Translations under genes and position numbers: made by a program | Notes under the pieces: model-generated | Database searches by the model: none | Told to the model about the DNA's origin: nothing | The model's input: only the letters and a program-made list of their open reading frames with translations | In this document: positions 16,626-63,781 of the stretch, piece by piece | Position numbering within the stretch: position 1 is the first letter of the stretch | Layout of the letters: every line of letters starts with the position of its first letter | NCBI GenBank assembly: GCA_965205955.1 | Contig: OZ242192.1 | Coordinates: 949,188-1,013,187 of the forward strand | Direction: 5' to 3' | Length of the DNA: 64,000 nucleotides | From: Gammaproteobacteria bacterium | GTDB taxonomy: Bacteria; Pseudomonadota; Gammaproteobacteria; Eutrophobiales; Eutrophobiaceae

Positions 16626-16628
16626 TCA

Positions 16629-17618: not shown

Positions 17619-19597
17619 ATACCGCTACCGTCCGAATACCCTGGCAATTAATGATTTGGCTGGCGGCAGGCATCTTGTTTTCGGCGCTTCCGCATACCAT
17701 ACGCATATCCTCCTGGATATCGATAATGCATATCATGCTGGTTTTTGCGCGCATGCTATTGTGTATTTATTTTCCTTTATTCCATCTGCAAAAAACCTTC
17801 ATGGCACGGCTCCCCGTATTGCTGGTTTCCGGGCTGTCTCTTATCGGGGTTTATTGGAGTTACGGCACGGTGATGGGGCGCGATCCGGGGATCGCATTAT
17901 TAACCGTTCTCGCGGCGCTGAAATTATTTGAATGCGACAATGAGCGTGATTTTTACATTATTTGCTACCTGGGTTATTTTTCGGTCATTACAAATTTTTT
18001 CTACAGTCAGACAATCCCCATTGCAATCTACATGTGCTTCATCGTGATTCTTATGACGGCAATATTGATTTCTTTCAACGACAAGCAGCAAAGCATGAAT
18101 ATATTCGATCGCTTTCGACTGTCCGCCGCCTTATTATTGCAGGCATTTCCAATCATGCTTATAGTCTTTTTATTCTTTCCGAGAATAAACGGCCCAATAT
18201 GGGGACTGCCCAAAGACGCTCACACCGGCGTCACCGGCATCGATGATGAGATGTCAATCGGTTCCATAAGCAAGTTAACACAATCCGATGCGGTAGCATT
18301 CCGCGTCAAATTCAAGGAGCGCATCCCGGACCCCGCCATTCTTTATTGGCGCGGGCCGGTTCTTTGGCACACTGACGGACGCAAGTGGACGACCGGGCGG
18401 ATCGTCAGAGATGAAGCGCCGGCTATAGACTATCGGCGGGGAGAGATCGTGTATGAGGTTACCATGGAAGCCACGAACAGGCATTGGTTGTTTGCTATCG
18501 AGATGCCGGCCCGGCTGCCCGATGAATCATATTTGACCGCCGATTATCAATTGAAGTCGCATACACCCGTGCACCGGCAAAAACAATACACGCTCAGCTC
18601 GTATACCGATTTTAAAAATAATACGCTTCGTAAGTCCGATTTACAGCGTGCCCTTGCGCTGCCTTCGGGCAAACATCGGCGAACCGTTTCACTTGCCGAC
18701 AGCTGGCTTGCTCCCGGCCAGACACCCGAACACATCATTCGGAAGGCGCTGGATTATTTCCGCGATAATAATTTTTCTTATACGCTTGAGCCTGCTTTAC
18801 TGACGGGCGATCCTGTTGATGAATTTTTATTCGAGAAAAAACAGGGATTCTGTGAGCATTATGCGGCCAGTTTTACTCTTTTAATGCGGGCTGCGGGTAT
18901 TCCGGCCAGAATCGTTACCGGATACCAGGGCGGTGAAATAAATCCTCTGGGGGATTACCTGATTGTCAGACAATATCACGCCCATGCCTGGTCGGAAGTC
19001 TGGCTTGACGGCAAGGGCTGGGTCAGAGTCGATCCAACCTCCGCAGTTTCACCGGACAGAATCAGTTACGGGGTCGAAAGCGCGATTCTGGAATCGATTA
19101 TCGGCATACCTCTCGGCTTGGAAAATAGTATCCTGGCAGCTACTATCCGGCAAAAACTGCGAAACAGCTGGGATGCGATCAACTATCGATGGATGCAATG
19201 GATATTGGGATACGGCCCGGAGCGGCAAAAGGCATTTTTCGCAAGGTTGGGATTTGAAAAATTCGGCTGGAAAACCCTGGCTGTCGGAATGATTGCCACA
19301 GTATCTCTGGCCTTATTGGTCTGCGCATTATGGATATTCAATACACGGCCAAAACAGGCTGATCCGGCCCAAAAGCTTTATCTGCAGTTCTGTCGAAAAC
19401 TGGAAAAAACAGGCGTTCGAAAAAAAAGCAGTGAAAGCCCAAATGTTTTTGCCCGGCGCGCATCGAAAGCAAGACGGAAATTGCGATCCGATATTTTTGC
19501 CGTTACCGGAATCTATATGGATATCCGCTATGGATCCCAGGTTCACAAACTGCATCAGTTGAAAACACGGGTATCTGATTTTGCGGCGCGAGGGTGA
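17615..19597 (+). CDS. DUF3488 + transglutaminase-like membrane protein (TgpA family)
   Basis: Multi-TM N-terminus, LYWRGPVL, GFCEHYA (Cys), HAWSEVW (His), WVRVDPT (Asp). Confidence 0.92.
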   Translation: MNTATVRIPWQLMIWLAAGILFSALPHTIRISSWISIMHIMLVFARMLLCIYFPLFHLQKTFMARLPVLLVSGLSLIGVYWSYGTVMGRDPGIALLTVLAALKLFECDNERDFYIICYLGYFSVITNFFYSQTIPIAIYMCFIVILMTAILISFNDKQQSMNIFDRFRLSAALLLQAFPIMLIVFLFFPRINGPIWGLPKDAHTGVTGIDDEMSIGSISKLTQSDAVAFRVKFKERIPDPAILYWRGPVLWHTDGRKWTTGRIVRDEAPAIDYRRGEIVYEVTMEATNRHWLFAIEMPARLPDESYLTADYQLKSHTPVHRQKQYTLSSYTDFKNNTLRKSDLQRALALPSGKHRRTVSLADSWLAPGQTPEHIIRKALDYFRDNNFSYTLEPALLTGDPVDEFLFEKKQGFCEHYAASFTLLMRAAGIPARIVTGYQGGEINPLGDYLIVRQYHAHAWSEVWLDGKGWVRVDPTSAVSPDRISYGVESAILESIIGIPLGLENSILAATIRQKLRNSWDAINYRWMQWILGYGPERQKAFFARLGFEKFGWKTLAVGMIATVSLALLVCALWIFNTRPKQADPAQKLYLQFCRKLEKTGVRKKSSESPNVFARRASKARRKLRSDIFAVTGIYMDIRYGSQVHKLHQLKTRVSDFAARG

Positions 19598-28529: not shown

Positions 28530-29540
28530 GTGTCTGTCTCCGCCCAGCTTGTAACAACGCCCGGTGACCGGCTCAGCCTGACATTGAGTCTGGCGATACT
28601 CGTACACGCGATGTTTATTTTAGGCATTACCTTCAGTGCGGAAGACGACCCCAAACCCCGCTTCGACACCATGGAAATCGTGCTGGTACAACAGCAAAGC
28701 CAAAAACCGGAAGAAGCCGACTTCCTGGCTCAGGCCAATCTGGAAGGAGGAGGAGCAAGCGAAGACAAGCTGAACCCGGCCACCCCGCTGCCCGCCCCAT
28801 TTCCACAGCAAAAGCCGGAAATCACCGCGCCCTCACCCGCAGAAAGCCGGCCGCCGGAGCCGGCAAAGCCGCAGGCTCCCGAAACACCGTTAACCCCGCC
28901 TGATCATCCCAACCCCTCGCAACCGGCAGAAAAATTGGTCGCAGAAAAAACAGACGCCAGGGAGTCCCTGGTCGAAAACCCCGGGAAACCGGAGCCCGAA
29001 CAAAAACCGTCTGAGCCGGAAACCCGGCCCGAATCGAAAACAAAACCCGAGCCGGAGCGGAAAAAACAGATCGATAAGACCGTTGCCAAACCGCCCACCC
29101 CCTCGGCGACAAAACTGTTGACCAACAGCTTCAAGATCGCCTCCCTAAGCGCGGAAATCAGACGCAAACTGGATGCCAGGGCAAAGCGGCCTCGGCGAAA
29201 ATTTATTTCGGCAAATACGCAAGAATACAAATATGCCTCGTACATGGATGCATGGCGGACCAAAGTGGAAAGAGTGGGGAATCTGAATTACCCGGAAGCG
29301 GCGCGCCGGCAAAATCTGTCGGGAAGTCTGGTGCTGGATGTTTCCTTGAATGTCGATGGATCGATCAATGACATTACCATTCGCAGTTCTTCAGGCCATA
29401 AAGTGCTCGATGACGCAGCCAAGAGAATAGTCAATCTTGCCTCGCCCTTTTCACCCTTCCCTGCTCAAATAGCCCAGGAAACCGACATATTGCATATAAT
29501 GCGCACCTGGCAATTCATAAATAATCGCAGTTTCAAATGA
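28530..29540 (+). CDS. tonB: TonB-family energy transducer (gshB-linked)
   Basis: N-terminal TM with His, Pro/Glu/Lys-rich linker, YP..ARR, SSG...LD.AA TonB_C domain. Confidence 0.85.
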   Translation: MSVSAQLVTTPGDRLSLTLSLAILVHAMFILGITFSAEDDPKPRFDTMEIVLVQQQSQKPEEADFLAQANLEGGGASEDKLNPATPLPAPFPQQKPEITAPSPAESRPPEPAKPQAPETPLTPPDHPNPSQPAEKLVAEKTDARESLVENPGKPEPEQKPSEPETRPESKTKPEPERKKQIDKTVAKPPTPSATKLLTNSFKIASLSAEIRRKLDARAKRPRRKFISANTQEYKYASYMDAWRTKVERVGNLNYPEAARRQNLSGSLVLDVSLNVDGSINDITIRSSSGHKVLDDAAKRIVNLASPFSPFPAQIAQETDILHIMRTWQFINNRSFK

Positions 29541-45607: not shown

Positions 45608-47944
45608 TTGGTAGCCGCTAATTCAGTGTTTAATCACGATGCGGAATTGAAACGCCGATTGTATGCCGCCTATACGGACAAGGGAGGCGATTACCGGCCG
45701 CGCACCCGTCACCTGGATGAACAGAATCAAGCTATTTATATCAACCGCCTGATTCTGGAAGACTCACCTTACCTGCTGCAACATGCCCATAATCCGGTTG
45801 ATTGGCATCCCTGGGGACGCGAGTCCTTTACGCGAGCCGCAACCGAAAACAAGCCGGTATTTCTCTCCATCGGCTACTCGACCTGTCATTGGTGCCACGT
45901 AATGGAAGCCGAAAGTTTTGACGACGAAACCATTGCCGGGTATATGAACGAGCACTTTATTCCGATAAAGGTAGACCGCGAGCTGCATCCGGATATTGAC
46001 GCTTTCTATATGCTCGCGGTGCTGATGATGGGCGGCCAGGGTGGCTGGCCGATGAGCAGTTTTTTGACCACGGAAGGCAAGCCTTTTTTTGGCGGCACAT
46101 ACTATCCGCCGCAGCAATTTATGAGCTTGTTGCAGCAGATATATGCGGCATGGATGGAAAAACCGGACGATGTGCTCAAACAGGCCGGGTTGGTTACGAA
46201 CAGGATCGATCTTGCGATGTCGACCAGACGGCAGGCCGCCGACGTTGGCAATGCAACGATAAAAAAAGCGCTGGAGGGCATAGTGCAGTCATTCGATCAG
46301 TCTTTCGGCGGTTTTGGCCAGGCGCCAAAGTTTCCCAATGAGCCCTGTTTATTTCTATTGCTGGAGGCGGAAATTCACTTCAATAGCGCATCCAATCTGA
46401 ATGTGCTGAATAAAACCCTGCAATCAATGGCTCAGGGCGGGATCTATGATCATGTAGGCGGAGGGTTTCACCGCTACGCTACCGACCGGCACTGGCTGGT
46501 TCCGCATTTTGAGAAGATGCTTTACAACCAGGCCAATCTTTCACGCATTTACCTGCGCGCCTACCAACTCACCGGACTGGGGTTTTACCGGCAGGTCGTG
46601 ACCGAAACCCTGGACTATATTCTGCGGGAAATGACCGACGAGCAAGGCGGCTTCTATTCTGCTACCGACGCCGACAGCGAGGGCCGTGAAGGAGCCTTCT
46701 TTACCTGGACCCATGCGCAACTGAAGGCCTGCCTGAGTCAAGCCGAGTACACACTGGCGGTAGGGTTATTCGGCGCTACCGAGGGCGGCAACTTCGAGGG
46801 GGAGAATATCTTGTTCCTGGCCGAAAGCTATGCCGAATATGCGGATAACAACGATCTGATATTGGCCGATCTGCTGCAAACCGTCGCTACGATAAAACAA
46901 AAATTATTGAGCGCCCGCAATCAGCGCGTACCGCCACTGCGGGACGACAAGATCATTACCGCCTGGAACGGCATGATGATCAGCGCATTCTCCGATGCCG
47001 GCAAAGTCCTGGGGCGCAAAGACTATGCCCGCGCGGCCATCGAGGCGGCAAATTATCTGTTGCACAAACATCGGGGGCCGGACGGTTCCTTATCCCGGGC
47101 CAGCCTGCGCGGCCATTGCAACATTGCCGCCGCACAGGAGGACTATGCCTTTCTGTCCGAAGCGCTGATCCAGCTTTATGACGACACCGATGATGCGCAC
47201 TGGCTACAGGAAGCGCAGGCGATCACCGATGCCATGTTGGCACAATTTCTGAGCGAACAGGACGGCGGCTTTTATATGGCGGCTGAAGAATCGGCCCTGC
47301 CCGTCCGGCTGAAGGAACTCGATGATAATGCAGTGCCTTCCGGCAATTCCGTGGCCCTGCGCATACTGGCAAAGATGGCAAGACGCACAGGCAAGGAACA
47401 GTATAACGATACTGCCCGGGCGTTGATCTCCGGCTTTTCCGAAAAAATCAATCAATACCCGCATGCCTTTGCCTATTTCCAGACCGGCCTGCTGGAATTT
47501 CTCCACGATGAATACGGCCCCCGGCAATATGCCGCCGGCGGTAATGTGCTGATTGACGCGCAGATCAATAATCAGGACCCGCAGATGGAATTGAATATCG
47601 CCATCACCATAAAATCCGGATGGCATATCAATGCCGGCGGCAGCCCGGACGGCGGCCTGACTGCAATGGAACTCAGCGCCGATGCGGACGCATCCTGGCA
47701 GATAAGCGCAATTGACTATCCCGCCCCGGTCCGCGGATATCTGTCCTTTGCGTCGGAAGAAATCCCGCTGTACAAAGACCGGATAGCGATCACCGTACGA
47801 CTCAAAAGAAAAGGGCACGCCGCTCCGTTGAAACTGATCCGGCTCGAATTACGGCTACAGGCCTGTAACCAGGACACCTGCCTTACCCCGGAAACCGTGC
47901 CACTGATTGTTTCCGAAACAAGCGGCCGCTCGCACCCACAATAG
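45608..47944 (+). CDS. DUF255/YyaL thioredoxin + (alpha/alpha)6 barrel protein with C-terminal DsbD-N-like domain
   Basis: [38 protein letters not shown]; C-terminal GWHINA...[10 protein letters not shown]. Confidence 0.88.
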
Positions 47945-47948
47945 CCCC

Positions 47949-50900
47949 ATGATCCGACTCTTCCGGTTTACCGGCTTTCTCCCTTACATCCTCATGGTAT
48001 TTTTCAATGCCTTTGTCGATCTTGGCCACAAGATTATTATCCAGAATTCTGTTTTCAAGGTGTATGACAATCAGGCGCAGATCATCCTGACCGCTATAGT
48101 CAACGGGCTTATTCTGCTCCCCTTCATCATGATGTTCTCGCCCGCAGGATATTGTTCGGACAAGTATCCCAAGAACAAGGTAATGCGGATCAGCGCCTGG
48201 GTTGCCGTGGGCCTGACCTTGCTGATCACTTTATTTTATTATCTGGGCTGGTTTTGGCCGGCATTTGCCATGACCTTCATGCTGGCGCTGCAAAGCGCGT
48301 TTTATTCCCCGGCAAAATACGGCTATATAAAAGAGCTGGTCGGCAAGGAAAATCTGGCGGGGGGGAACGGACTGGTGCAGACGGCAACGACGATCGCCAT
48401 TCTCAGCGGGATCTTTGTTTTTTCCATCCTGTTCGAGGCTCGTCTTGCCGGGGTAAGCTACGACGGGAAATCATCGTTACTGACTCACATTGCCCCGCTG
48501 GGCTGGTGCCTGGTCGGATTCAGCCTGATCGAACTTGCGCTGGCATATGCCCTGCCGCAAAAGAAGGAAACGGACCGGGAAATGTATTTTGACTGGGAGA
48601 AATACAGGCGGGGGCAATACCTGCGCGACAATCTCACGGTTGTGCTGCGCCATGAAGTTATTTTTCTTTCAATAATAGGGCTGTCGGTTTTCTGGGCCGT
48701 CTCCCAGGTGGTGCTGGCGGCTTTTCCCGCACATGCAAAGGAAACGATGTCCATTACCAATACGGTTATTATTCAGGGCACGATAGCCTGTGCCGGTTTC
48801 GGAATTATGCTCGGGTCACTGGTAGCCGGCCATATTTCCAAAACGCATATTGAAACAGGTTTAATCCCCATCGGCTCCGTCGGCATTGCCTTATGTTTGT
48901 TCGTTTTGCCCAGGTTGCACGATGTTGTCGCCCTGGCGGTAAATTTTCTTTTCTGGGGCATGGCGGGCGGCGTGTTGATTATCTCGTTAAATGCGCTAAT
49001 TCAATTCCACGCCGTAAAGGATCAGGCCGGGCGGGTGCTGGCCGGAAATAATTTTATTCAAAATCTGACAATGTTCAGCTTCCTTGTTCTGACCGTTGTT
49101 TTTGCATTGGTCGGCATCGGCAGTTACGGCTTATTTATGCTCCTTTTTATTGTCGCCCTTGGCGGCGCGATCTATACCGTCTATAAATTACCCCAATCCC
49201 TGCTCAGGTTCATGATCGGCCACCTTATCGGCTATAAATACCGGCTGGAAGTGCTCGGCTTGAAAAACCTTCCTGAATCTGGCGGAGTGCTGATGCTTGG
49301 CAACCATATAAGCTGGCTGGACTGGGCCATCGTGCAAATGGCCTCGCCCCGCCCGATACGATTCGTGATGATCCGCGATATTTATGAGCGCTGGTATCTG
49401 AAATGGTTTTTTTCTATTTTCGATGTAATTCCAATTTCCACCGGAGGGAGCCTCACTGCATTAAAGGAAATCAATGCCAGCCTGGGTAAGGGCGACGCGG
49501 TTTGCCTGTTTCCGGAAGGGACAATAAGCCGCACGGGGCAGATGACCAAATTACAGAAAGGGTTTGAAAAGGCCGGCAAGGGTACCCATGCCGTTATCCT
49601 GCCCTTTTATCTTCGCGGCTTATGGGGAAGCCGGTTTTCACGTTCCAGCAAAAAACTGAGGGGCATGCGCGATGCCGGAGTAAAGAGGGATATTATCGTC
49701 ACATTTGGCGAAACTTTGTCTATAGATTCTTCCGCAGAGACCGTGAAAAAGCGTATTTTCGACCTTTCCATCGATTCATGGCAGTGCTATGCCCAGACAC
49801 TCCAGCCGATTGCTTCTGCGTTTGTCGATTCCAGCAAGCGGGATAAAGGGGAACCGGCTATTATCGATCCGTTGACCGGAACGCTGAGCCGGTCTGCATT
49901 GCTGGCGGGAGTGATCTGTTTTTCACGATTGATTAAGCGCTATTCTCCCGAGCCGAATATTGGGTTGTTATTGCCCATGGGTAGCGCCGGAGCCATAGCC
50001 AATATGGCCGCGCTAATGCGCGGCAAGACGGTGGTCAATCTGAACTTTACCGCCGGGCGTGAGGCCCTGCGGGCGGCGGTGAAAAAGGCGGATATTAAAA
50101 CCATATATACCTCGGAGAGATTTCTGAAAAAATTAGTCAGCCGGGGTATAGACGTGCGCGAAATATTTCCTGATGCAACCCTGCTGTATATGGAAAGACT
50201 GCGGGGAGAAATCAGTAGCACGGCCAGGCTGGTCGCGTTTGTCATGGCAGTGATATTGCCGGCGCGACTGCTGAAATTGCTTTACTGCAAATCTGTAGAT
50301 ATCGAGAAGCCGGCCGCGATTTTGTTTTCCAGCGGCAGTGAGGGCGAGCCCAAAGGCGTTATGCTGAGTCATAAAAATATCATGGCGAATCTGAAGCAGA
50401 TCTCCGATGTGTTGAATACGCAGGACACCGATATTGTCATGGCAACCCTGCCCTTGTTTCATGCTTTCGGTCTGACCGTTACGACGATGATGCCGCTGGT
50501 CGAGGGGGTGCCGATAGTTTGTCATCCCGACCCAACGGATGCGGTGAATATTGCCAAGCTCATTGCCGAATATCGGGCGACGATTTTCTGCGGAACCTCG
50601 ACATTTTTGCGTTTATATATCAAAAATAAACGGGTGCACCCGCTGATGCTGGAGTCGTTGCGCATCGTTGTGGCGGGCGCGGAAAAATTGAGTCCCGAGG
50701 TGCGTGAAGCCTTCAAGTTGAAATTCAACAAGGATATTTATGAAGGCTATGGCGCCACCGAGACGACGCCGGTTGCCAGCGTGAATGTTCCGGACGCACT
50801 GGATGTCAATTATTGGCAGGTACAGTTGGGCAGCAAGGCGGGAACTGTCGGCATGCCGTTGCCCGGTTCCAGTTTTCGCATTGTCGATCCCGAATCAATG

Positions 50901-51395
50901 GAAGAGTTGCCCGTCAATCAGGATGGCTTGATATTGATTGGCGGGGCGCAGTTGATGCTGGGTTATCTGAAAGATGAGGGAAAAACCGATGAGGTGATTA
51001 CCGAGATCGACGGCCGGCGCTGGTATAAAACCGGCGATAAGGGCCACCTCGATGAGGATGGCTTTTTAAGCATTGTCGACCGCTATTCCCGCTTTGCAAA
51101 ACTTGGCGGTGAAATGATTAGTTTAACCGCTGTCGAGGAGCAAATACGCACCGCATTGCAGCAACCCGAACTGGAATTGGCGGCAATAAACCTGGCCGAT
51201 GAGAAAAAGGGAGAAAAGATCATGGTAATTGTTGCCGATGAGTATGATCTTGAAACCGTCAGAAAGGCCATGCTTGAAAGTAACAGCAATCCGCTAATGA
51301 TTCCCAGCGAGCTGAGGGTCGTGGAGGAGGTGCCCAAACTGGGTAGCGGGAAAACGGATTTTATCGCTGCCAGAAGACTGTTGCTCGGTGATTGA
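47949..51395 (+). CDS. aas: MFS (LplT) + acyltransferase + acyl-ACP synthetase fusion
   Basis: N-terminal MFS (SPAKYG), NHISWLD and FPEG (PlsC), FSSGSEGEPKGV, YGATE, TGD, GSGK. Confidence 0.92.
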   Translation: MIRLFRFTGFLPYILMVFFNAFVDLGHKIIIQNSVFKVYDNQAQIILTAIVNGLILLPFIMMFSPAGYCSDKYPKNKVMRISAWVAVGLTLLITLFYYLGWFWPAFAMTFMLALQSAFYSPAKYGYIKELVGKENLAGGNGLVQTATTIAILSGIFVFSILFEARLAGVSYDGKSSLLTHIAPLGWCLVGFSLIELALAYALPQKKETDREMYFDWEKYRRGQYLRDNLTVVLRHEVIFLSIIGLSVFWAVSQVVLAAFPAHAKETMSITNTVIIQGTIACAGFGIMLGSLVAGHISKTHIETGLIPIGSVGIALCLFVLPRLHDVVALAVNFLFWGMAGGVLIISLNALIQFHAVKDQAGRVLAGNNFIQNLTMFSFLVLTVVFALVGIGSYGLFMLLFIVALGGAIYTVYKLPQSLLRFMIGHLIGYKYRLEVLGLKNLPESGGVLMLGNHISWLDWAIVQMASPRPIRFVMIRDIYERWYLKWFFSIFDVIPISTGGSLTALKEINASLGKGDAVCLFPEGTISRTGQMTKLQKGFEKAGKGTHAVILPFYLRGLWGSRFSRSSKKLRGMRDAGVKRDIIVTFGETLSIDSSAETVKKRIFDLSIDSWQCYAQTLQPIASAFVDSSKRDKGEPAIIDPLTGTLSRSALLAGVICFSRLIKRYSPEPNIGLLLPMGSAGAIANMAALMRGKTVVNLNFTAGREALRAAVKKADIKTIYTSERFLKKLVSRGIDVREIFPDATLLYMERLRGEISSTARLVAFVMAVILPARLLKLLYCKSVDIEKPAAILFSSGSEGEPKGVMLSHKNIMANLKQISDVLNTQDTDIVMATLPLFHAFGLTVTTMMPLVEGVPIVCHPDPTDAVNIAKLIAEYRATIFCGTSTFLRLYIKNKRVHPLMLESLRIVVAGAEKLSPEVREAFKLKFNKDIYEGYGATETTPVASVNVPDALDVNYWQVQLGSKAGTVGMPLPGSSFRIVDPESMEELPVNQDGLILIGGAQLMLGYLKDEGKTDEVITEIDGRRWYKTGDKGHLDEDGFLSIVDRYSRFAKLGGEMISLTAVEEQIRTALQQPELELAAINLADEKKGEKIMVIVADEYDLETVRKAMLESNSNPLMIPSELRVVEEVPKLGSGKTDFIAARRLLLGD

Positions 51396-55261: not shown

Positions 55262-55668
55262 CGTGATTGATTCTGATGAAAGATGTGTTTGCAATCCTTA
55301 TTAATAGTACCAAATCTGCAAGCGCGGGCAAGCGGCAAGTGCGGGTATGTGTCCGGTAAACCGATTATTTGTCTGAATCCGTGCGGCAATCTGCATTGGG
55401 AATTTGGGGCTAGAGCTCAGTCTATCCTCTAATGCAGAGAGCGTTATAACCATGTTCTTTGCAGGGAGTAGCGGCAGGCTGCCCGCACCCGTCTCTGCCA
55501 CAGTGGCAGGTGAATAATGCGCTGGACTTGAATCGCTTTGGTGGGCAATATGAGTGGGTAGATACGAGTACTGGATTGAGATTATGAGGGGGAATTGCGT
55601 TCGTACTGGCCGCCTCTCTATTCATATTGGGGAGGCACGTGGTTGGCCATCTCCTTGTAGGCGCAAGA

Positions 55669-55703
55669 CCCCCTCACTCTGGCCTTCTCCCAGAGGGAGA
55701 GGG
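55669..55703. repeat. Short palindromic intergenic repeat (CCCTCACxCTxxCCxTCTCCC...GGGAGAGGG type)
   Basis: CCCCCTCACTCTGGCCTTCTCCCAGAGGGAGAGGG; pyrimidine tract followed by a TCTCCC/GGGAGA hairpin. Confidence 0.65.
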
Positions 55704-55819
55704 TGATATCTTTGGTAAAGGGCAGGCCAAGGCTATTTTGAGTGGCGAGGGCCTGTTATGCCGGGGCTATCATGAAGACCGGAAGATTTCCTGATTCTTT
55801 AAGATATAATTTAGTTGTT

Positions 55820-55880
55820 GTAAATAATTCTTATTTGTGTTATCATTCTTATCTGTGTTATCATTCTTATTTGTGTATTC
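55820..55880. promoter_or_regulatory. Fur-box-like operator with three tandem 18-bp repeats upstream of bfd
   Basis: ATTCTTATTTGTGTTATC / ATTCTTATCTGTGTTATC / ATTCTTATTTGTGTATTC (55827-55880); the reverse strand reads (A/G)ATAAGAATGATAAC, built of GATAAT-like hexamers. Confidence 0.7.
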
Positions 55881-55906
55881 ATCCCGTATCATCGAGAGGA
55901 TAGTTG

Positions 55907-56086
55907 ATGTATGTGTGCGTCTGTAATGCGGTTACCAGGAAGGATATCGAGGTAGCGATTGCCGAGGGGGCGAACTGCCTGGAACATTTGTGTGAGCGGC
56001 TGGATGTTTCTCTTTGTTGTGGCGCCTGTGCCGAGGCGGTCAATGCGTGTCTGGAGGAGGGCTTGCCGGGTAAGGCAGACAGGTAA
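55907..56086 (+). CDS. bfd: Bacterioferritin-associated [2Fe-2S] ferredoxin
   Basis: MYVCVCNAVT...CCGAC; GAGAGGA RBS. Confidence 0.9.
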   Translation: MYVCVCNAVTRKDIEVAIAEGANCLEHLCERLDVSLCCGACAEAVNACLEEGLPGKADR

Positions 56087-56124
56087 CTAAAATGCTGTAT
56101 TGCAGGGCTTGAATTTGTAAATAT

Positions 56125-56145
56125 AAATAAGAATAATTCTTGTTT
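56125..56145. promoter_or_regulatory. Fur-box-like palindrome
   Basis: AAATAAGAAT-A-ATTCTTGTTT, near-perfect inverted repeat upstream of the porin-like gene. Confidence 0.7.
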
Positions 56146-56178
56146 AGATTAGTTTTATAATTTTTATATTAATAGGGG

Positions 56179-56976
56179 GTGCTGATGAAATATAAATCAA
56201 GTACATTGCCCGATTGGGGTGTTGATCTGGGGAGGGTTTCCCGAATCGTACCGGGGTTCTGTGGTGCGCTTGTGCGCATGTTGTGTGTCTTGTTGCTGTC
56301 GGCCTGGATGGGGCCGGCGGTGGCTTGGGAGTTTGAGGGTGTGTTGTCGTATGACAGCCGCTATATAGGCGCCGGCAACACTAATGAGCTGACGCACGGC
56401 GGTATCGGAACCCTGGAACTGGGGCTGGAGAAGGAAACCGAATGGGGCCGCTTCAGCCATGGTATCGAGCTGATTTTGGCGACTTCCGTAAATTATAAGG
56501 AATCCGTGCTCTCGGTCGGATATGGGCGGGATATCGGCGCTTTTGACCTTTCACTTTCCTACGCACACCTCGAATTTGACGGCGATGCCGGCGAGGATGG
56601 GGCCGAAGATAAGGAGGGAGATAATGAATGGGCGGCGGAACTCTCCTGGACAGGGTGGGAGGCCGTAACGCCAAATCTCGAATACCTCTACTCGGATAAT
56701 GCCAAAGGTGGGCTACTGACCTTCACCTTGGAAGGCGAGATCGAGATCGCCGGGCAGAGCCTGTCGCCGTATCTGCTGATCGATTTTGACTATGATTACG
56801 TGTCGCCGGAATACGAAGGCCTGAACAGTATTGGAGGCGGTGTTGCATGGAGCATGCCGCTGGGAAATCATCTGGAAATGACGGTTCACCTTTCCTACGC
56901 AAACGCGCAAAGGAACCTGCGCCTGGAGGGTGAAGACCGCGATTACTTTTGGGGAGGTGTGAGTTTTTCGCTATGA
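56179..56976 (+). CDS. Putative acidic outer-membrane beta-barrel (porin-like) protein
   Basis: Signal-peptide-like segment ending AVA-W, alternating amphipathic strands rich in G/Y/W/F, SRYI near the mature N-terminus, C-terminal YFWGGVSFSL; true start uncertain (56185 or 56278). Confidence 0.6.
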   Translation: MLMKYKSSTLPDWGVDLGRVSRIVPGFCGALVRMLCVLLLSAWMGPAVAWEFEGVLSYDSRYIGAGNTNELTHGGIGTLELGLEKETEWGRFSHGIELILATSVNYKESVLSVGYGRDIGAFDLSLSYAHLEFDGDAGEDGAEDKEGDNEWAAELSWTGWEAVTPNLEYLYSDNAKGGLLTFTLEGEIEIAGQSLSPYLLIDFDYDYVSPEYEGLNSIGGGVAWSMPLGNHLEMTVHLSYANAQRNLRLEGEDRDYFWGGVSFSL

Positions 56977-57037
56977 AACATATCAAAACATTATTTTTGA
57001 GGAGGTCTAATTTCGCTATGAAACATATCAAAACATT
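56966..57037 (+). repeat. Direct duplication (45-bp period) of RBS plus first codons
   Basis: TTTCGCTATGAAACATATCAAAACATT exact at 56966-56992 and 57011-57037, each preceded by GGAGGT. Confidence 0.9.
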
Positions 57038-57584
57038 TCTAATTCCGCTCGTCGCTGCTATCCCACTGTGGCTGTCGGCTTGGCCAGCGCAGGCGCTTGA
57101 GCTGGTGATCGGCGAAGAGACCGTGAAGCCGGGCATTGTTTTTATCTTTGAAGGGGCGATCAAGGACACTGTATCACCCGCGGCGCAACATCTGGATGTG
57201 AGTCAGACCGACGTGCATATCGAGGCGCGGGTGAACTGGGATGAGTCGGGCTCGGTGCCGGAGGGTACGCCGCGCGGGGGGTTTGTGCCATATCTGCAGA
57301 TCAATGCGGTGATTACCAGTGAGACGACCGGGGAGTCGGTGCATGCGACCTTGGTGCCGCATGCGAATCTGGTTGATAATTTCCACTACGCGCGCAATAT
57401 CGCGTTGCCGTCGGCGCTCACCGACAAATATGAAGTGGTCTTTCATGTGCATCCGCCGGGCGAGTTCGATCTGGCCTTTCATAAGGATTGGGTGAGCGCC
57501 CACGGTACGCCGTTGATGCAGCCGGAATCTTTCCGCTACCGTGGCGTAAATTTCGAGGCGATTGCCAAGGCGACGCGCGAGTAG
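57018..57584 (+). CDS. P19/Tp34/FetP-like periplasmic metal-binding iron-transport protein
   Basis: Signal peptide (AQA), DVHIEA, FVPYL, HYARNI, FHKD align by eye with P19 DIHLEA, WMPYL, HYGANI, RHVD; alternative in-frame start at 56973. Confidence 0.8.
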   Translation: MKHIKTFLIPLVAAIPLWLSAWPAQALELVIGEETVKPGIVFIFEGAIKDTVSPAAQHLDVSQTDVHIEARVNWDESGSVPEGTPRGGFVPYLQINAVITSETTGESVHATLVPHANLVDNFHYARNIALPSALTDKYEVVFHVHPPGEFDLAFHKDWVSAHGTPLMQPESFRYRGVNFEAIAKATRE

Positions 57585-57616
57585 TGTGTCTGCCCGTGCG
57601 GGTATTTGTGAAATAT

Positions 57617-57643
57617 AAATCTAATTTATTCTCATTTTCATTT
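57617..57643. promoter_or_regulatory. Fur-box-like site upstream of fbpA
   Basis: Reverse strand AAATGAAAATGAGAATAAATTAGATTT. Confidence 0.6.
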
Positions 57644-57679
57644 AGAGTCTGTATGTAAGATAGCGGGGTTAGCAAGGAT

Positions 57680-58681
57680 ATGCAGAGACTGTTGTTGTTA
57701 TTATCGATCTTTCTGTCCAATGGAATGGCGGCGGAAGTGAATGTTTATTCTGCGCGCAAGCAGGCGCTGATTGAACCGTTGCTGGATCAGTTCACGCAGC
57801 AGACCGGTATAGCGGTGAATCTGGTGACCGGCGAGGCCGATACCTTGATTAAACGGTTGGAGGCCGAGGGGCGCCATTCGCCGGCGGATGTGTTGATCGC
57901 AACCGATGTCGCCCGTCTTTACCGGGCCGCCAGGCTGGAATTGTTCCAGCAAATCGATTCGGAGCTTTTGCGCTCTTCTGTTCCGGCGCAATATCGTGAT
58001 GTGAATAACAGTTGGTTTGGTCTGTCGCTGCGGTCGCGGATTATTGTTTACTCTCCCAAGAGAGTTGGCACGGACGAACTGCGGGATTATCTGTCCCTGA
58101 GTGATGCAAAATGGCACGGGCGCATCTGCGTACGTTCTTCATCCAATTCCTACAACCAATCGCTGGTGGCGGCCCTCATTGCGCGCCATGGTATGCAAAA
58201 AACAGAGCAATGGGCGGATGATTTTGTAAAGAATTTTGCTCGACCTCCCACGGGGGGAGATCGCGATCAGATCCGCGCCGTTGCATCCGGGGAATGCGAT
58301 ATAGCTCTGGTAAATAATTATTATCTGGCGGGCATGCTGGACTCGAGCAGAAAACAGGAGGTCGAGGTTGCACAGGCTGTTGATTTATTCTGGCCCAATC
58401 AGGACACCAACGGCGCCCATGTCAATATCAGCGGAGCGGGCGTAGCGCGCTATGCAAGGAACAAGGAAAATGCTGTCAAGCTGTTAGAATTTTTAGTCGG
58501 CGATGTGGCGCAACATTGGTTTGCCGCTGCAAATCACGAGTATCCCGTCAAGCCGGGCATACAGGCCAGTAGCATTCTAAGTCAATGGGGTGAATTCAAA
58601 CCGGACAATATTGAACTGAACCGGCTGGGTATGCTGAACAAACCGGCCGTTTTGTTAATGGACCGCGCGGGATGGTGGTGA
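57680..58681 (+). CDS. fbpA: Fe(III) ABC transporter substrate-binding protein (FutA/FbpA type)
   Basis: VYSARK, SPAD, SNSYNQSL, GGDRDQI, NNYYL, HVNISGAG, N.EYP. Confidence 0.93.
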   Translation: MQRLLLLLSIFLSNGMAAEVNVYSARKQALIEPLLDQFTQQTGIAVNLVTGEADTLIKRLEAEGRHSPADVLIATDVARLYRAARLELFQQIDSELLRSSVPAQYRDVNNSWFGLSLRSRIIVYSPKRVGTDELRDYLSLSDAKWHGRICVRSSSNSYNQSLVAALIARHGMQKTEQWADDFVKNFARPPTGGDRDQIRAVASGECDIALVNNYYLAGMLDSSRKQEVEVAQAVDLFWPNQDTNGAHVNISGAGVARYARNKENAVKLLEFLVGDVAQHWFAAANHEYPVKPGIQASSILSQWGEFKPDNIELNRLGMLNKPAVLLMDRAGWW

Positions 58682-58752
58682 TTTTCTTACAAAAGCCCAT
58701 TGGGATCTCTTCGCCTGACCGTTATTTTGCATAGTTAGCGCGGGCTTCAGCA

Positions 58753-60393
58753 ATGCGAGAGAAATGGTTGTGGTTTGCAAATTTATTGCTGGTCTCGCTA
58801 CTGTCTATTCCGCTGTTGACGGTGTTGTCTTCCTTGTTGCAGCCGGACTGGGATGTGTGGCAGCATCTCTACGATACGGTATTGAGCGATTATGTGGTAA
58901 ATTCCCTGGCGCTGATGGCGGGGGTCGGTGTGCTGGCGCTGATATGGGGGGTGTTGCCCGCCTGGTTGCTCACCATGTATTCTTTTCCTCTGTCGCGGGT
59001 ATTCGGCTGGGGCTTGTTGTTGCCCGCATCCATACCGGTCTACATTATTGCCTATGCCTATACCGGTATGCTGGACGCGGGCGGGCCGTTGCAGGCCGGG
59101 TTGCGTGCGATTAGCGGCCTGCCCTACGGTGGGTATTGGTTCCCGGAAGTGCGTTCGATGCAGGGGGCAATGTTATTGATGTCGCTGGGCTTGTATCCGT
59201 ATGTGTATCTGCTGTCGCGGGCGGCATTCATTGAGCAATCGGCCTGTGTGCTGGATGCGGCGCGAACCCTGGGGTGTCGGCGAACGGATGCGTTTCTGCG
59301 AGTGGCCCTGCCGTTGGCGCGACCGGCAATAATTGTCGGGTTGTCGCTGGTATTGATGGAAACCCTGGCGGATTATGGCACGGTGCAGTATTTTGGCATA
59401 CCGGTTTTCACCACCGGTATATTTCGCACCTGGTTCGGTCTTGGGGAGGAGTTGGCGGCCGCTCAATTGTCCGCCTTGATGGTGGTTTGTGTTTTTGTCC
59501 TGGTGGCGGTGGAGCGCCGGTCAAGGAGAAGGCGGCGTTATTATCAGACCAGCGGGCGGTATGGCAGGATCGACAGGCAACAGTTGCGCGGGTTCAAGGC
59601 GGTGGCGGCAATGGTATATTGTGCGTTGCCGCTGTTCGGCGGTTTTGTCATCCCGGCCGGCTATCTCTGCCTGCTGGCATTCGATTCGGAGGCGCTGATT
59701 TTCGACCGGGGGTTTATTGTGTTGTTTTGGCATAGCGTGTTGCTGGCCCTGGGGGCATCGGTTTTGGCGGTGATGTTGGCGTTGTTGATTGCCTATGCGC
59801 ACCGCCTGTATCATTCGGCGTTCACTGCTTGCGCCTTGCGTTTCGTCGGCATGGGGTATGCGATACCGGGCACGGTGATCGCCGTCGGTGTGCTGATCCC
59901 TTTCGGCTGGTTTGATAACCGGCTGGATGGCTGGTTGCAGGCCCAGTTCGGCGTGGGCAGCGGGCTGTTGTTGTCCGGCAGTTTGTTTATTCTCGTGTTT
60001 GCCTATCTGGTTCGCTATTTGGCCGTTTCACTGAATACCGTTGCTGCCGCGCTGGAGAAAATAAAGCCGAGCATGGATGAGGCGGCGCGATCGGCCGGGA
60101 TGAATGCGGTGTATATCATACGGGACATCCATATGCCGATTATGAAGGGTAGCTTGCTTACCGCGCTGTTGCTGGTGTTTGTGGATGTGCTGAAGGAGTT
60201 GCCCGCCACGCTGATTTTGCGGCCGTTCAATTTCAATACGCTGGCAGTGCGGGCCTATGAACTGGCGAATGAGGAAAGGCTGGCCGAGGCGGCGGCGCCG
60301 GCTCTGGCAATTGTTTTGGCGGGCATCGTTCCGATATTGTTTGCCGCCACGATGATCTCGCGTATGCGGTCGGGCTATGAACCGGGCAATTGA
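58753..60393 (+). CDS. fbpB: Fe(III) ABC transporter permease
   Basis: Duplicated permease domain, YPYVYL, LPLARPA, ME.LADYG, KELPATL.LRPFNF.TLA. Confidence 0.93.
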   Translation: MREKWLWFANLLLVSLLSIPLLTVLSSLLQPDWDVWQHLYDTVLSDYVVNSLALMAGVGVLALIWGVLPAWLLTMYSFPLSRVFGWGLLLPASIPVYIIAYAYTGMLDAGGPLQAGLRAISGLPYGGYWFPEVRSMQGAMLLMSLGLYPYVYLLSRAAFIEQSACVLDAARTLGCRRTDAFLRVALPLARPAIIVGLSLVLMETLADYGTVQYFGIPVFTTGIFRTWFGLGEELAAAQLSALMVVCVFVLVAVERRSRRRRRYYQTSGRYGRIDRQQLRGFKAVAAMVYCALPLFGGFVIPAGYLCLLAFDSEALIFDRGFIVLFWHSVLLALGASVLAVMLALLIAYAHRLYHSAFTACALRFVGMGYAIPGTVIAVGVLIPFGWFDNRLDGWLQAQFGVGSGLLLSGSLFILVFAYLVRYLAVSLNTVAAALEKIKPSMDEAARSAGMNAVYIIRDIHMPIMKGSLLTALLLVFVDVLKELPATLILRPFNFNTLAVRAYELANEERLAEAAAPALAIVLAGIVPILFAATMISRMRSGYEPGN

Positions 60394-61414
60394 AATCAAT
60401 AACTTGTCGGTCAAGATTGAAAATCAGCCGATTATTCAGTCGGTTTCCTTCGACCTGAAGGAAGGTGAAATCGGCTGTCTACTGGGGGCGAGCGGCTGCG
60501 GCAAATCGACGCTGCTGAGAGCAATCGCCGGGTTCGAGCGGCCGGCCGCCGGAGAAATCCGGGTGAAGGGGGTGCGGGTCAGCAATGCCAGACACCTTGT
60601 TCCGGTCGAACAGCGGCAGATCGGCATGGTGTTTCAGGATTACGCGCTGTTCCCGCATATGACGGCGGTCGAGAATATTACCTTCGGTATGCGCAATGCA
60701 TCCAAACAGACAAAGCGTGAGCGCCTGCTGGAGTTGATTGAATTGCTGGATCTGGAAGGGTGCGGCGATAAATATCCGCATCAGCTTTCGGGCGGTCAGC
60801 AGCAGCGCATTGCGCTGGCCAGGGCAATGGCCCCGCGGCCGGCGATATTATTGCTGGACGAGCCGTTTTCAAATCTGGATGTCGAATTGCGGGAGCAGAT
60901 TGCCTATCAGATCGGGGCAATTCTCAGGAAAGACGGTGTTACTGCGCTGCTGGTCAGCCATAATCAGTTGGAGGCCTTTGCAATGGCGGATAGGGTCGGC
61001 GTCATTAATCATGGTTCTCTATTGCAATGGGATACCGCGTTCAATCTCTATCACGAACCAAAGTGCGTGTACGTCGCCGACTTTGTTGGTGAGGGGGTGT
61101 TTATCGGCGGCGAGGTGGTGGATGCGCACACCGTCGATACCGAGTTGGGGCATATCGTCGGCAAGCGGGCGCACGGGCGTCCGCCCGGCAGCCGGGTGAA
61201 TGTATTGATACGACCGGACGATGTTTTGCATGACGATGCAAGCCCAATGCAGGCAAAGGTATTAAAAAAGGCATTCAGAGGCGCCGAGTTTTTATATACT
61301 CTGGAATATAATGGAGGTACCCGCCTGTTGAGTCTGGTGCCCAGTCATCATAATCATCCGGTGAATGAGCCGATAGGGATCCGGCTGGAAATAGACCATC
61401 TGGTGGTTTTTTGA
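60377..61414 (+). CDS. fbpC: Fe(III) ABC transporter ATP-binding protein
   Basis: GASGCGKST, FQDYALFPH, LSGGQQQR, LLDEPFSNLD, C-terminal TOBE region. Confidence 0.92.
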   Translation: MNRAIEINNLSVKIENQPIIQSVSFDLKEGEIGCLLGASGCGKSTLLRAIAGFERPAAGEIRVKGVRVSNARHLVPVEQRQIGMVFQDYALFPHMTAVENITFGMRNASKQTKRERLLELIELLDLEGCGDKYPHQLSGGQQQRIALARAMAPRPAILLLDEPFSNLDVELREQIAYQIGAILRKDGVTALLVSHNQLEAFAMADRVGVINHGSLLQWDTAFNLYHEPKCVYVADFVGEGVFIGGEVVDAHTVDTELGHIVGKRAHGRPPGSRVNVLIRPDDVLHDDASPMQAKVLKKAFRGAEFLYTLEYNGGTRLLSLVPSHHNHPVNEPIGIRLEIDHLVVF

Positions 61415-61698: not shown

Positions 61699-62679
61699 AT
61701 GAAAAAGGAAATATCAAATAAGAATTTGCACAAGGCAAACATCGCTAAAAAAGATGAATTTTATACCCAGCTACCGGATATTGAAAAAGAGTTGAAGCAT
61801 TATAAAGAGTACTTTAAGGGCAAGGTTGTTTTTTGTAATTGTGATGATCCTCGTATCAGTAATTTCTTCAATTATTTTTCCTATAATTTTGAATATTTAG
61901 AGCTAAAAAAATTGATTACGACCTGTTATAAAAATCAAAATATTAATCTGTTCAGCCAAAACAATGCAGAAAAGGCAATTTATTTAGAGTACGAAGGCGA
62001 TAAAAATGATAATAAAGTTCCTGACCATGAAGAAATTGGCATTCAACACTTAGCCGGTGATGGCGATTTTAGAAGCAAGGAATGTATTGCACTTTTGAAA
62101 AAGGCGGATATTGTAGTCACCAATCCGCCTTTTTCTCTATTTCGATACTATGTTGCTCAGTTAGTGGAATATGATAAAAAATTTGTCATCATCGGCAATC
62201 AAAATGCCATAACCTACAAAGAGATTTTTAAACTCATAAAAGAAAATAAAATTTGGTTCGGACATAGTATCCATAGCGGAGATAGAGAATTTGGAGTTCC
62301 TAATGATTATCCATTAAACGCCGCTAGTAGTAGAATTGATGAAAATGGGAATAAATATATTAGAGTTAAAGGGGTTCGCTGGTACACCAATTTAGACTAT
62401 AAAGAAAGACATGAAGATTTAATACTTTACAAAAAATACAATGAAAGTGAATATCCTAAATATGATAACTATGATGCCATAAATATTGATAAAACCAAAG
62501 ATATTCCGATGGATTATAAGGGAGCTATGGGTGTGCCAATTACCTTTATGGATAAATATAATCCTGATCAATTTGAAATTATGGGCAATGAATATGATTT
62601 AAATATAGATAAAGGTCGTGGATACGTTAATGGCAAGAGGAAGTACAGTAGGATTTTTATTAAAAAGAAAAGAATTTAA
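61699..62679 (+). CDS. EcoRI-family adenine-specific DNA methyltransferase
   Basis: KKDEFYT, VFCNCDDP, GDGDFRS, VTNPPFSLF, MGVPITF; very AT-rich. Confidence 0.92.
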   Translation: MKKEISNKNLHKANIAKKDEFYTQLPDIEKELKHYKEYFKGKVVFCNCDDPRISNFFNYFSYNFEYLELKKLITTCYKNQNINLFSQNNAEKAIYLEYEGDKNDNKVPDHEEIGIQHLAGDGDFRSKECIALLKKADIVVTNPPFSLFRYYVAQLVEYDKKFVIIGNQNAITYKEIFKLIKENKIWFGHSIHSGDREFGVPNDYPLNAASSRIDENGNKYIRVKGVRWYTNLDYKERHEDLILYKKYNESEYPKYDNYDAINIDKTKDIPMDYKGAMGVPITFMDKYNPDQFEIMGNEYDLNIDKGRGYVNGKRKYSRIFIKKKRI

Positions 62680-62698
62680 CTATAAACTATATTTACTT

Positions 62699-63781
62699 AT
62701 GAAAATAAAACTTAAAGAAATTCCAATTAGGGATCTATCCCATGGATACGTCAATGACAATGAGGAGGGCGTTATTGGTTATAGTGGAAAATTAAACATT
62801 CGCCCCAAATATCAACGTGAGTTTATCTATAAAGACCAGCAAAGAGATTCTGTCATAAACAGCATTAACAAGGATTTTCCGCTCAATGTAATGTATTGGA
62901 TAAAAAACCAAGATGGCGGTTTTGAGGTGTTAGACGGACAACAAAGAACGATTAGTATTTGTGAATATGTATCTGGTAAATTTTCACTCAATAATTTGTA
63001 TTTTCACAATCTCCAAGATACGGAACAAGAAAAAATTCATGATTATAAATTGATGGTGTATTTTTGCGAGGGAACGGATAAGGAAATACTAGATTGGTTT
63101 AAAATCATTAACATAGCAGGGGAAAAACTTACCGATCAAGAGTTGAGAAATGCAATTTATACCGGCACTTGGCTGACTAATGCTAAAAGGCATTTTAGCA
63201 AAACCGGTTGCCCTGCTTACGGTATCGCAAATAATTATTTAAAAGGGGTAGCAATCCGTCAGGATTATTTAGAGACCACAATAAAATGGATAAGCAATGA
63301 TGCCATTGAGCAATATATGGCTAAACACCAACACAAGCCAAACGCAAACGAGCTATGGTTGTATTTTCAAAGTGTTGTCAACTGGATCAAAGCTATTTTT
63401 CCAAAATATCGCAAAGAAATGAAAGGCGTGTCTTTTGGTGTTTTATATAACGAATTTAAAGACAAACAATACGATTCTGAAAAACTGGAAGAAGAAATAA
63501 CAACATTAATGCAAGACGAAGATGTAACTAAAAAAGCAGGTATTTATTCCTATGTTCTCACTAGAGATGAAAAATATTTAAGCATTCGTGCCTTTAGCGA
63601 GAACCAAAAAAGAGAAGCATACGAAAAACAAAAAGGAATTTGTAGAAAGTGTGGAAAAAAATTTAAAATAAATGAAATGGAAGCTGACCATATAACACCT
63701 TGGCATGAAGGAGGTAAAACTACCGCTGATAATTGTCAAATGTTATGCAAACAAGATAATAGAACAAAGTCAGGAAAATGA
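62699..63781 (+). CDS. DUF262 (GmrS-like) + HNH endonuclease
   Basis: PKYQREFIY, VLDGQQR, F..IN..G..L (DUF262); C..C, EADHI.PW.EGG.T...NCQMLC...N (HNH). Confidence 0.9.
   Translation: MKIKLKEIPIRDLSHGYVNDNEEGVIGYSGKLNIRPKYQREFIYKDQQRDSVINSINKDFPLNVMYWIKNQDGGFEVLDGQQRTISICEYVSGKFSLNNLYFHNLQDTEQEKIHDYKLMVYFCEGTDKEILDWFKIINIAGEKLTDQELRNAIYTGTWLTNAKRHFSKTGCPAYGIANNYLKGVAIRQDYLETTIKWISNDAIEQYMAKHQHKPNANELWLYFQSVVNWIKAIFPKYRKEMKGVSFGVLYNEFKDKQYDSEKLEEEITTLMQDEDVTKKAGIYSYVLTRDEKYLSIRAFSENQKREAYEKQKGICRKCGKKFKINEMEADHITPWHEGGKTTADNCQMLCKQDNRTKSGK

Follow-up and report, generated by a model that had tools for sequence, protein, structure and literature searches.

To our knowledge, P19-family proteins have so far been understood only as partners of FTR1 permeases, and the closest described members occur in the P19/Ftr1 system of Campylobacter jejuni, FetMP of Escherichia coli, FtrABCD of Bordetella, Brucella and Rubrivivax, and as HftA and Tp34 of Treponema. 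Among ferric ATP-binding cassette (ABC) importers, the closest described systems are FutABC and FbpABC, and in the cyanobacterial model, as presented in the available part of PMC7676907, inorganic Fe that enters through porins or TonB-dependent transporters is passed to FutA2 and then to FutBC. A locus that combines elements of both types lies at 55.8–61.4 kb of a 64,000-nucleotide stretch of Gammaproteobacteria contig OZ242192.1 (hereafter the window), where the open reading frame list and family scans reveal six genes, all on the + strand, in agreement with a preliminary description of this DNA. This locus is tentatively interpreted as an iron-acquisition locus, in which an acidic outer-membrane barrel, a P19-like protein and FbpABC may form a relay encoded, together with a Bfd-like ferredoxin, in three modules with common AT-rich upstream motifs. 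The six genes are as follows.

55907..56086, + strand, gene 1: Bfd-like [2Fe-2S] ferredoxin, 59 amino acids from ATG (Pfam Fer2_BFD, E 6.9e-8).
56185..56976, + strand, gene 2: acidic 12-stranded outer-membrane β-barrel of an unnamed family, 263 amino acids from ATG (AlphaFold2, Foldseek, homologue search).
57018..57584, + strand, gene 3: periplasmic P19/FetP-family protein of a '4-His' clade, 188 amino acids (Pfam PF10634, PDB, AlphaFold2, Foldseek).
57680..58681, + strand, gene 4: FbpA/FutA-type periplasmic Fe(III)-binding protein (PDB 6g7n 1.4e-93, 2pt1 7.1e-93, 1q35 4.2e-83).
58753..60393, + strand, gene 5: FbpB, a fused double permease (two BPD_transp_1 stretches).
60377..61414, + strand, gene 6: FbpC ATPase with a TOBE domain, overlapping fbpB by 17 nt (ABC_tran 1.2e-36, TOBE_2 2.4e-9).

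In the proposed arrangement, module 1 would contribute the small Bfd-type [2Fe-2S] ferredoxin, module 2 a conserved pair composed of a barrel of monomeric-porin size, its lumen and third outer loop packed with Asp and Glu, and a four-His P19-family protein, and module 3 a standard FbpABC ferric ABC importer. Unchelated iron cations would enter across the outer membrane through the acidic barrel, and the P19-like protein would trap them in the periplasm, thereby keeping the gradient directed inward. The iron would then be transferred to FbpA and imported by FbpBC, and Bfd would most simply be the product of an iron-starvation gene under the same control, mobilising stored iron outside the import path. 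Gene identities, folds, conserved ligand positions and the acidity of the barrel are firmly supported by the comparisons below, and a relay from barrel to P19-like protein to FbpA is plausible; the substrate, the channel activity, the hand-over to FbpA and the regulator are what we infer within it.

The product of gene 3 belongs to the P19 family, since it matches Pfam Iron_transport (PF10634) at 105.9 bits (cut-off 21, E 2.8e-30) and adopts the P19 fold in prediction. Specifically, it matches FetP (PDB 3nrp) at E 1.9e-10, and its AlphaFold2 model (pLDDT 87.9) aligns in Foldseek with FetP, P19, HftA, FtrA and Tp34 at TMt 0.75–0.80. As in the described systems, it carries PF10634 and the common fold, is a secreted periplasmic protein, and keeps three of the four Cu-site ligands together with the acids at E44 and D92. 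Residues H67, E69, H115, D120, H123 and H155 are invariant in 32 aligned P19-like sequences. Among these, H67, H123 and H155 retain the His ligands of the Cu site, which we take to be H42, M88, H95 and H132 in P19 numbering, while E69 and D120 align with P19 E44 and D92, presumably the Fe ligands; PDB entries for the variants M90I, E46Q, M88I, E44Q and D92H name these P19/FetP positions. Unlike the proteins of P19/Ftr1, FetMP and FtrABCD, the window protein has Arg71 in place of the Asp of 'HLEAD' and, at the position of FetP M90 and P19 M88, His115, which is His in 32 of 32 sequences; this invariant replacement of the Cu-site Met confirms the earlier proposal that the gene encodes a variant of the family. 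Two features that define P19 are thus missing, namely the Met ligand and a neighbouring FTR1/FetM-type permease, of which none was present in the locus or in the long open reading frames of the 64 kb that were scanned, which is the scope of every absence from the window given here. The window gene has no FTR1/FetM, cupredoxin or polyferredoxin gene beside it; it has a barrel partner and is followed by fbpABC. According to the available part of PMC8238504, the described P19 systems use an FTR1 permease. A search with the P19-like protein returned 1091 proteins at E<=1e-5, and the best 120 all carry PF10634 and are 51–100% identical to it, the few named ones among these 120 being from marine and other environmental sources; the clade with His at the Met position looks large and mostly marine. 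A tblastn search against plasmids gave FetP-type matches only, at <60% identity.

The junction between the barrel and P19-like genes is compact. The P19-like frame is open from 56949, contains ATG codons at 56973 and 57018, and ends at 57584, and the barrel stop codon overlaps the first of these ATGs as ATGA at 56973–56976. The start region is marked by the following repeat.

56966..57037, + strand: perfect direct repeat of 27 nt (period 45 nt) that doubles the P19-like gene's ribosome-binding and start region (repeat search, 100% identity).

The two copies of this repeat occupy 56966–56992, where the first overlaps the barrel stop codon, and 57011–57037, and they generate two in-frame MKHIKT starts, the second of which, with its ATG at 57018, was created by the duplication. 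A public copy of the protein (P0135, 188 amino acids, 100% identical) starts at 57018. The repeat gives the impression of a tandem duplication of recent origin, at a junction with translational coupling: the coupling claimed previously is supported by the ATGA overlap and blurred by the duplication with its second start.

Gene 2 encodes, with confidence at the level of the structural model, an acidic β-barrel. The reading frame at 56179–56976, which includes an alternative GTG start at 56179, had been put forward as a barrel, and AlphaFold2 run on the family alignment bears this out with a confident model of 12 strands (pLDDT 88.1, pTM 0.77), preceded by a long signal-like helix at residues 18–44. 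The protein ends in YFWGGVSFSL, corresponding to the family consensus W.G....F. The closest solved folds in Foldseek are OmpG, PcoB (TMt 0.67) and the 12-stranded monomeric porins KdgM (TMt 0.72–0.78) and NanC (TMt 0.60), with E values of 1e-6 to 1e-7 at a sequence identity of 10–11% for the last three; autotransporter barrels, FapF and LpxR are further results of this search. The protein matches nothing in Pfam or NCBIfam, a word-based homologue search retrieved its own cluster only, the family profile gave 0 hits against PDB, and tblastn against phages and plasmids gave no match. An exhaustive HMMER search recovered 134 representatives at E<=1e-3, 39 of them at <=1e-10 and 4 at <=1e-30; the relatives measure about 200–320 amino acids with few truncated exceptions, and the nearest are 53%, 42% and 39% identical. 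When 55 family members were scanned singly, only weak barrel hits appeared, for example Porin_4 in 8 and OMP_b-brl in 4, with MipA and LpxR also represented. Language-model look-alikes, which serve as leads only, were TorF/Gcw_chp putative porins in 19 of 30 named hits and included one 'putative Copper resistance protein B' cluster.

The acidity of this barrel is pronounced and shared by its family. The mature protein contains 39 D/E against 10 K/R, and EFDGDAGEDGAEDKEGDNE is present in the loop predicted to join strands 5 and 6, so that the earlier description of an Asp/Glu-rich porin-like protein with an acidic loop is upheld; this loop ends in a family-wide DNE and holds 22 D/E in one member. 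Across the family the median net charge is -21 and the median pI 4.2. Lumen-facing positions, estimated from strand parity and hydrophobicity in place of a pore analysis on coordinates, number 74 and comprise 23 D/E against 1 K/R, with many small residues. Residues E108, D148, E150 and D204, all probably lumen-facing, are acidic in 54/55, 51/55, 52/55 and 48/55 members, respectively. A tree built from 63 rows of the family places the window barrel in one clade with P0002, P0255, P0003 and P0004 (SH-aLRT 98), and the Arg found in loop 1 of 47/51 other members is replaced in 4/4 sequences of the window's clade. KdgM and NanC pass acidic sugars, substrates that do not suit the acidic lumen of the window barrel. 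The likeness to PcoB/CopB and KdgM/NanC lies in a predicted small barrel of similar size, and the window barrel is also genetically tied to a periplasmic metal protein; it differs from them in its identity of 10–11% and in the lack of a Pfam match to the CopB, KdgM or porin families. The acidity of the barrel counts in favour of the proposed route.

Genes 4 to 6 constitute a standard ferric ABC importer. The window FbpA matches FutA of Trichodesmium and Synechocystis and FbpA of Mannheimia at E 1e-83 to 1e-93, and FbpB and FbpC are equally typical, with a fused two-domain permease and a TOBE ATPase in the same operon. Residues Y158, Y214, Y215, R26 and R118/R120 were located in FbpA; the three tyrosines align with Tyr of 6g7n, 2pt1 and 1q35, at positions that we take to be the Fe(III) ligands, and the retention of these tyrosines is as the preliminary description expected. 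The N-lobe 'RHY' of FutA is 'RKQ' in the window protein, similar to the Mannheimia-type 'YRQPY'. In NCBIfam, no score rose to an equivalog cut-off, FbpC scoring 248.5 bits against the ferric ABC ATPase model PRK11432, below its cut-off of 496. The proposed route resembles the cyanobacterial FutABC model in that iron would cross the outer membrane passively to reach a ferric binding protein in the periplasm (PMC7676907, available part), and the locus differs from FutABC in the dedicated small acidic barrel and P19-type protein directly upstream.

The barrel and P19-like genes appear to travel together among close relatives. Barrel P0002 and P19-like P0418 both derive from a 13,482-bp contig, barrel P0255 and P19-like P0140 from a 588,371-bp contig, barrel P0004 and P19-like P0152 from a 6,922-bp contig, and barrel P0006 and P19-like P0173 from a 1,833,960-bp contig, where contig identity was judged from equal size in bp, an indirect proxy that for the two large contigs indicates 'same genome' only. 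Such matches were obtained for 3/14 barrel clusters looked up, and all 3 are among the 4 nearest. Since the nearest barrel relatives thus lie on contigs matching those of P19-like relatives, the pair looks conserved, probably as one module. A complex prediction that paired barrel residues 48–265 with P19-like residues 27–188 scored 0.00, which counts neither for nor against binding.

A genome scan with the four closest barrels identified five distant loci with barrels of 31–41% identity, the window's own locus not being among them. In 2/5 of these, from 'candidatus Porisulfidus' metagenome-assembled genomes, the gene immediately before a PedA1A2BC-type ABC system encodes a barrel relative (L001 7992–13031 and L003 7476–12520), with TIGR03863, TIGR03866, TIGR03864 and TIGR03861 all above their cut-offs. 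A PedA1A2BC-type system is needed for growth of Pseudomonas putida at nanomolar lanthanide, according to the available part of PMC6839425, and is reportedly required for lanthanide uptake; the position of the barrel relatives before such systems fits a role as a gate that admits cations to periplasmic and ABC-type uptake. Upstream of both Ped loci, in divergent orientation, are genes for a MotA/ExbB-like and a DsbC-like protein. In a Verrucomicrobia locus (L004 2978–8603), a barrel homologue directly follows a cluster of MoxR, DUF58 and transglutaminase genes similar to that at 15681–19597 of the window, which consists of a MoxR ATPase, an unnamed 329-amino-acid reading frame and a TgpA-type transglutaminase.

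The three modules are each preceded by an AT-rich intergenic region, and these regions share motifs as listed below.

55818..55882, + strand: promoter-like site at 55818–55846 overlapping three tandem 18-bp AT-rich repeats (55824, 55842, 55860), a putative operator before the bfd-like gene (repeat search, sigma-70-like scan, motif counts).
56109..56170, + strand: two promoter-like sites, AAATATAAAT (56119) and ATAAGAATAAT / its near-palindrome (56127–56143), before the barrel gene (repeat, motif and promoter scans).
57600..57642, + strand: region 5′ of fbpA with GAAATATAAAT and reverse-strand ATGAGAATAAA, common to the barrel promoter region (repeat search, motif counts).

The 18-bp unit was found by repeat search in three tandem copies at 55824–55882, and promoter-like sites overlap the repeats 5′ of both gene 1 and gene 2. 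Of the 19 matches to the core ATRAGAATWAT in the window (<=1 mismatch), 7 fall within the three intergenic regions, compared with a whole-window expectation of 5.5, an enrichment that is partly circular because the motif was derived from those regions. In addition, all 3 window occurrences of AAATATAAAT, for which 0.36 would be expected, fall at 56119, 56188 and 57611, which places them upstream of gene 2, at its start and upstream of gene 4. The hairpin after the P19-like stop codon (-6.3 kcal/mol, z -0.29) is not significant, and no significant terminator was found between the genes of the locus. Common control of the three regions is plausible, and the regulator may be Fur. The Fur-like sites originally reported before genes 1, 2 and 4 do not rise above chance when measured against the canonical 19-bp consensus, from which the host's own Fur motif may differ: no site with <=3 mismatches occurs anywhere in the 64-kb window, and the best scores in the three regions, 11, 12 and 12 of 19, were attained in 1489, 685 and 307 cases when the same AT-rich regions were shuffled 2000 times. 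Canonical Fur boxes were accordingly rejected as evidence, the local scores being no better than those of shuffled sequence.

Several observations weigh against an iron relay that runs through to FbpABC, beginning with the rejection of canonical Fur boxes and the indirectness of the contig-size proxy. For the other 11/14 barrel clusters, no contig matched a P19-like protein among the best 120 of 1091, although these misses are weak evidence because the comparison covered those 120 hits. Linkage to fbpABC is seen in this window only: none of the best 120 of 6533 FbpA relatives, or of the cluster members looked up, matches a contig of a close P19-like or barrel relative. Within the same best 120 of 6533, the nearest non-self FbpA relative is 68% identical and is followed by a plateau at 58–65%, compared with P19-like relatives at 75–86% identity. 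The co-conservation raised in the preliminary description therefore holds in part, with the nearest barrels appearing to accompany the nearest P19-like proteins and none being seen with fbpABC. At the distant barrel loci, 0/5 adjoin P19 or fbpABC, the contexts being non-iron ones. Iron as the substrate and the barrel as an open channel are both presumptive, and a site of four His might prefer Cu(II), Zn or Ni to Fe. Moreover, a protein with a TonB C-terminal domain is encoded within the window at 28530–29540, next to glutathione synthetase, which gives the organism one TonB-like protein or more. FTR1, bacterioferritin, cupredoxin and TonB-dependent receptors were not found in the window, and genes for an FTR1 permease, for Bfr and for TonB-dependent receptors could be located outside it; the earlier terms 'TonB-independent' and 'no FTR1' thus apply to these 64 kb.

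One alternative is that the locus is a co-regulated neighbourhood rather than a relay, with the barrel–P19 pair serving a permease elsewhere (FTR1/FetM-type or other), FbpABC working with general porins or TonB-dependent receptors, Bfd working with a bacterioferritin elsewhere, and a common iron-starvation regulon explaining the adjacency. This explanation, which we regard as somewhat unlikely, draws on the separate AT-rich upstream region of each module, on the promoter-like sites before both bfd and the barrel gene, and on the mutual contig matches of close P19-like and barrel relatives, none of which extends to a listed FbpA relative; the use of an FTR1 permease by described P19 systems (PMC8238504, available part) points the same way. 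It is opposed by FbpB being the sole permease of the locus and of the scanned window, by the short gaps and the lack of a significant terminator between P19 and fbpA, and by AAATATAAAT, which is common to the barrel and fbpA upstream regions only.

The choice of metal is a further point at which the relay may be questioned, as the pair could handle Cu, Zn, Ni, Mn or a lanthanide, in uptake or periplasmic buffering, and merely stand beside an iron importer. The Met-to-His change that yields a four-His site, the Ni and Cu complexes among solved FtrA/P19 structures (as given in PDB titles), the likeness of the barrel to the copper channel PcoB, the 'putative Copper resistance protein B' cluster among its look-alikes, and the barrel relatives before PedA1A2BC-type lanthanide-linked transporters at 2/5 loci (PMC6839425, available part) all lean towards another metal; the acids aligned with P19 E44 and D92 are nevertheless invariant, the upstream motifs of the pair are common to bfd and fbpA, and no copper, zinc or pyrroloquinoline quinone genes occur in the 64-kb window, so that we judge this possibility distinctly unlikely. 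A barrel that is no channel at all, acting as an outer-membrane structural protein, anchor or enzyme like some 12-stranded barrels, with its acidity devoted to binding divalent cations or lipopolysaccharide, would agree with the autotransporter barrels, FapF and LpxR returned by Foldseek, with MipA and LpxR among the weak Pfam hits of the family, and with a lumen estimated by strand parity rather than by pore measurement. The small residues and conserved acids at presumed lumen-facing positions, together with the genetic pairing with periplasmic solute-binding proteins in two different contexts, make this very improbable in our view. The acidic barrel–P19–FbpABC relay stays the tentative reading of the locus. 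A broader and unlikely extension of it is that acidic 12-stranded barrels are an undescribed family of outer-membrane gates for hard metal cations (Fe, lanthanides) co-encoded with a receiver, which in the clade of the window would be a four-His P19 that works without FTR1 and feeds an ABC importer. Iron would then have a path that depends on neither TonB nor siderophores and might be common among marine bacteria.

The Bfd-like gene is less distinctive. Its reading frame opens with TTG at 55904 (60 amino acids), the ATG following at 55907, and the protein matches Pfam Fer2_BFD at 33.1 bits (cut-off 26), while scoring 24.5 bits against the NCBIfam Bfd equivalog PRK10509, far below the cut-off of 75. 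Cysteines lie at positions 4, 6, 37, 38 and 41 from the ATG, giving the four-Cys pattern C4, C6, C38 (or C37) and C41. The protein thus shares the Fer2_BFD domain and Cys pattern with the Bfd of Bfd–Bfr pairs, and differs in falling below the equivalog cut-off and in having no bfr gene after it or elsewhere in the window. A role for Bfd as electron donor in the release of imported iron is a conjecture from gene adjacency. The approximately 600 bp 5′ of this gene (55295–55903) hold no Pfam-matching reading frame and no Rfam match, and a G+C-rich hairpin lies upstream of it at 55682–55704.

The surroundings of the locus are unrelated to it. The upstream flank carries, on the opposite strand, genes encoding 3-methyladenine glycosylase and a nucleotidyltransferase-like product, together with asnS. 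Downstream of fbpC, at 61699–63781, an island of 31–33% GC encodes an EcoRI-type adenine methylase and a GmrSD-N/HNH protein and is probably an acquired restriction or defence cassette. Small reading frames beside the locus gave no Pfam match, and Rfam (at gathering thresholds) and tRNA scans of the window gave no match. Elsewhere in the window, an MmeI-type fused restriction-methyltransferase of 926 amino acids with all five MmeI domains is encoded at 8097–10877, and a 1162-amino-acid fusion of a major facilitator superfamily transporter, an acyltransferase and an AMP-binding enzyme at 47907–51395.

The combination had been proposed as one that does not correspond to a described system. For the whole this stands, as no description of P19 with FbpABC or with a dedicated barrel was found in full-text searches, which excluded subscription journals and supplements; for the part, a porin–FutA–FutBC route has been published (PMC7676907, available part). 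Three elements appear to be new: the barrel family, a P19 clade set apart as a type by its four His, and the pairing of the two, which is probable as a gene linkage in relatives. FbpABC and Bfd are ordinary, and the complete 'system' is not yet established.

Ferric ABC importers have been described as outnumbering all other iron transporters in the genomes of marine prokaryotes (PMC7676907, available part), and the way in which unchelated iron crosses the outer membrane towards them is settled in part only. If true, the conserved pairing of a barrel with a P19 variant would be a concrete candidate for outer-membrane iron entry and would give a role to an outer-membrane protein family without a Pfam model.

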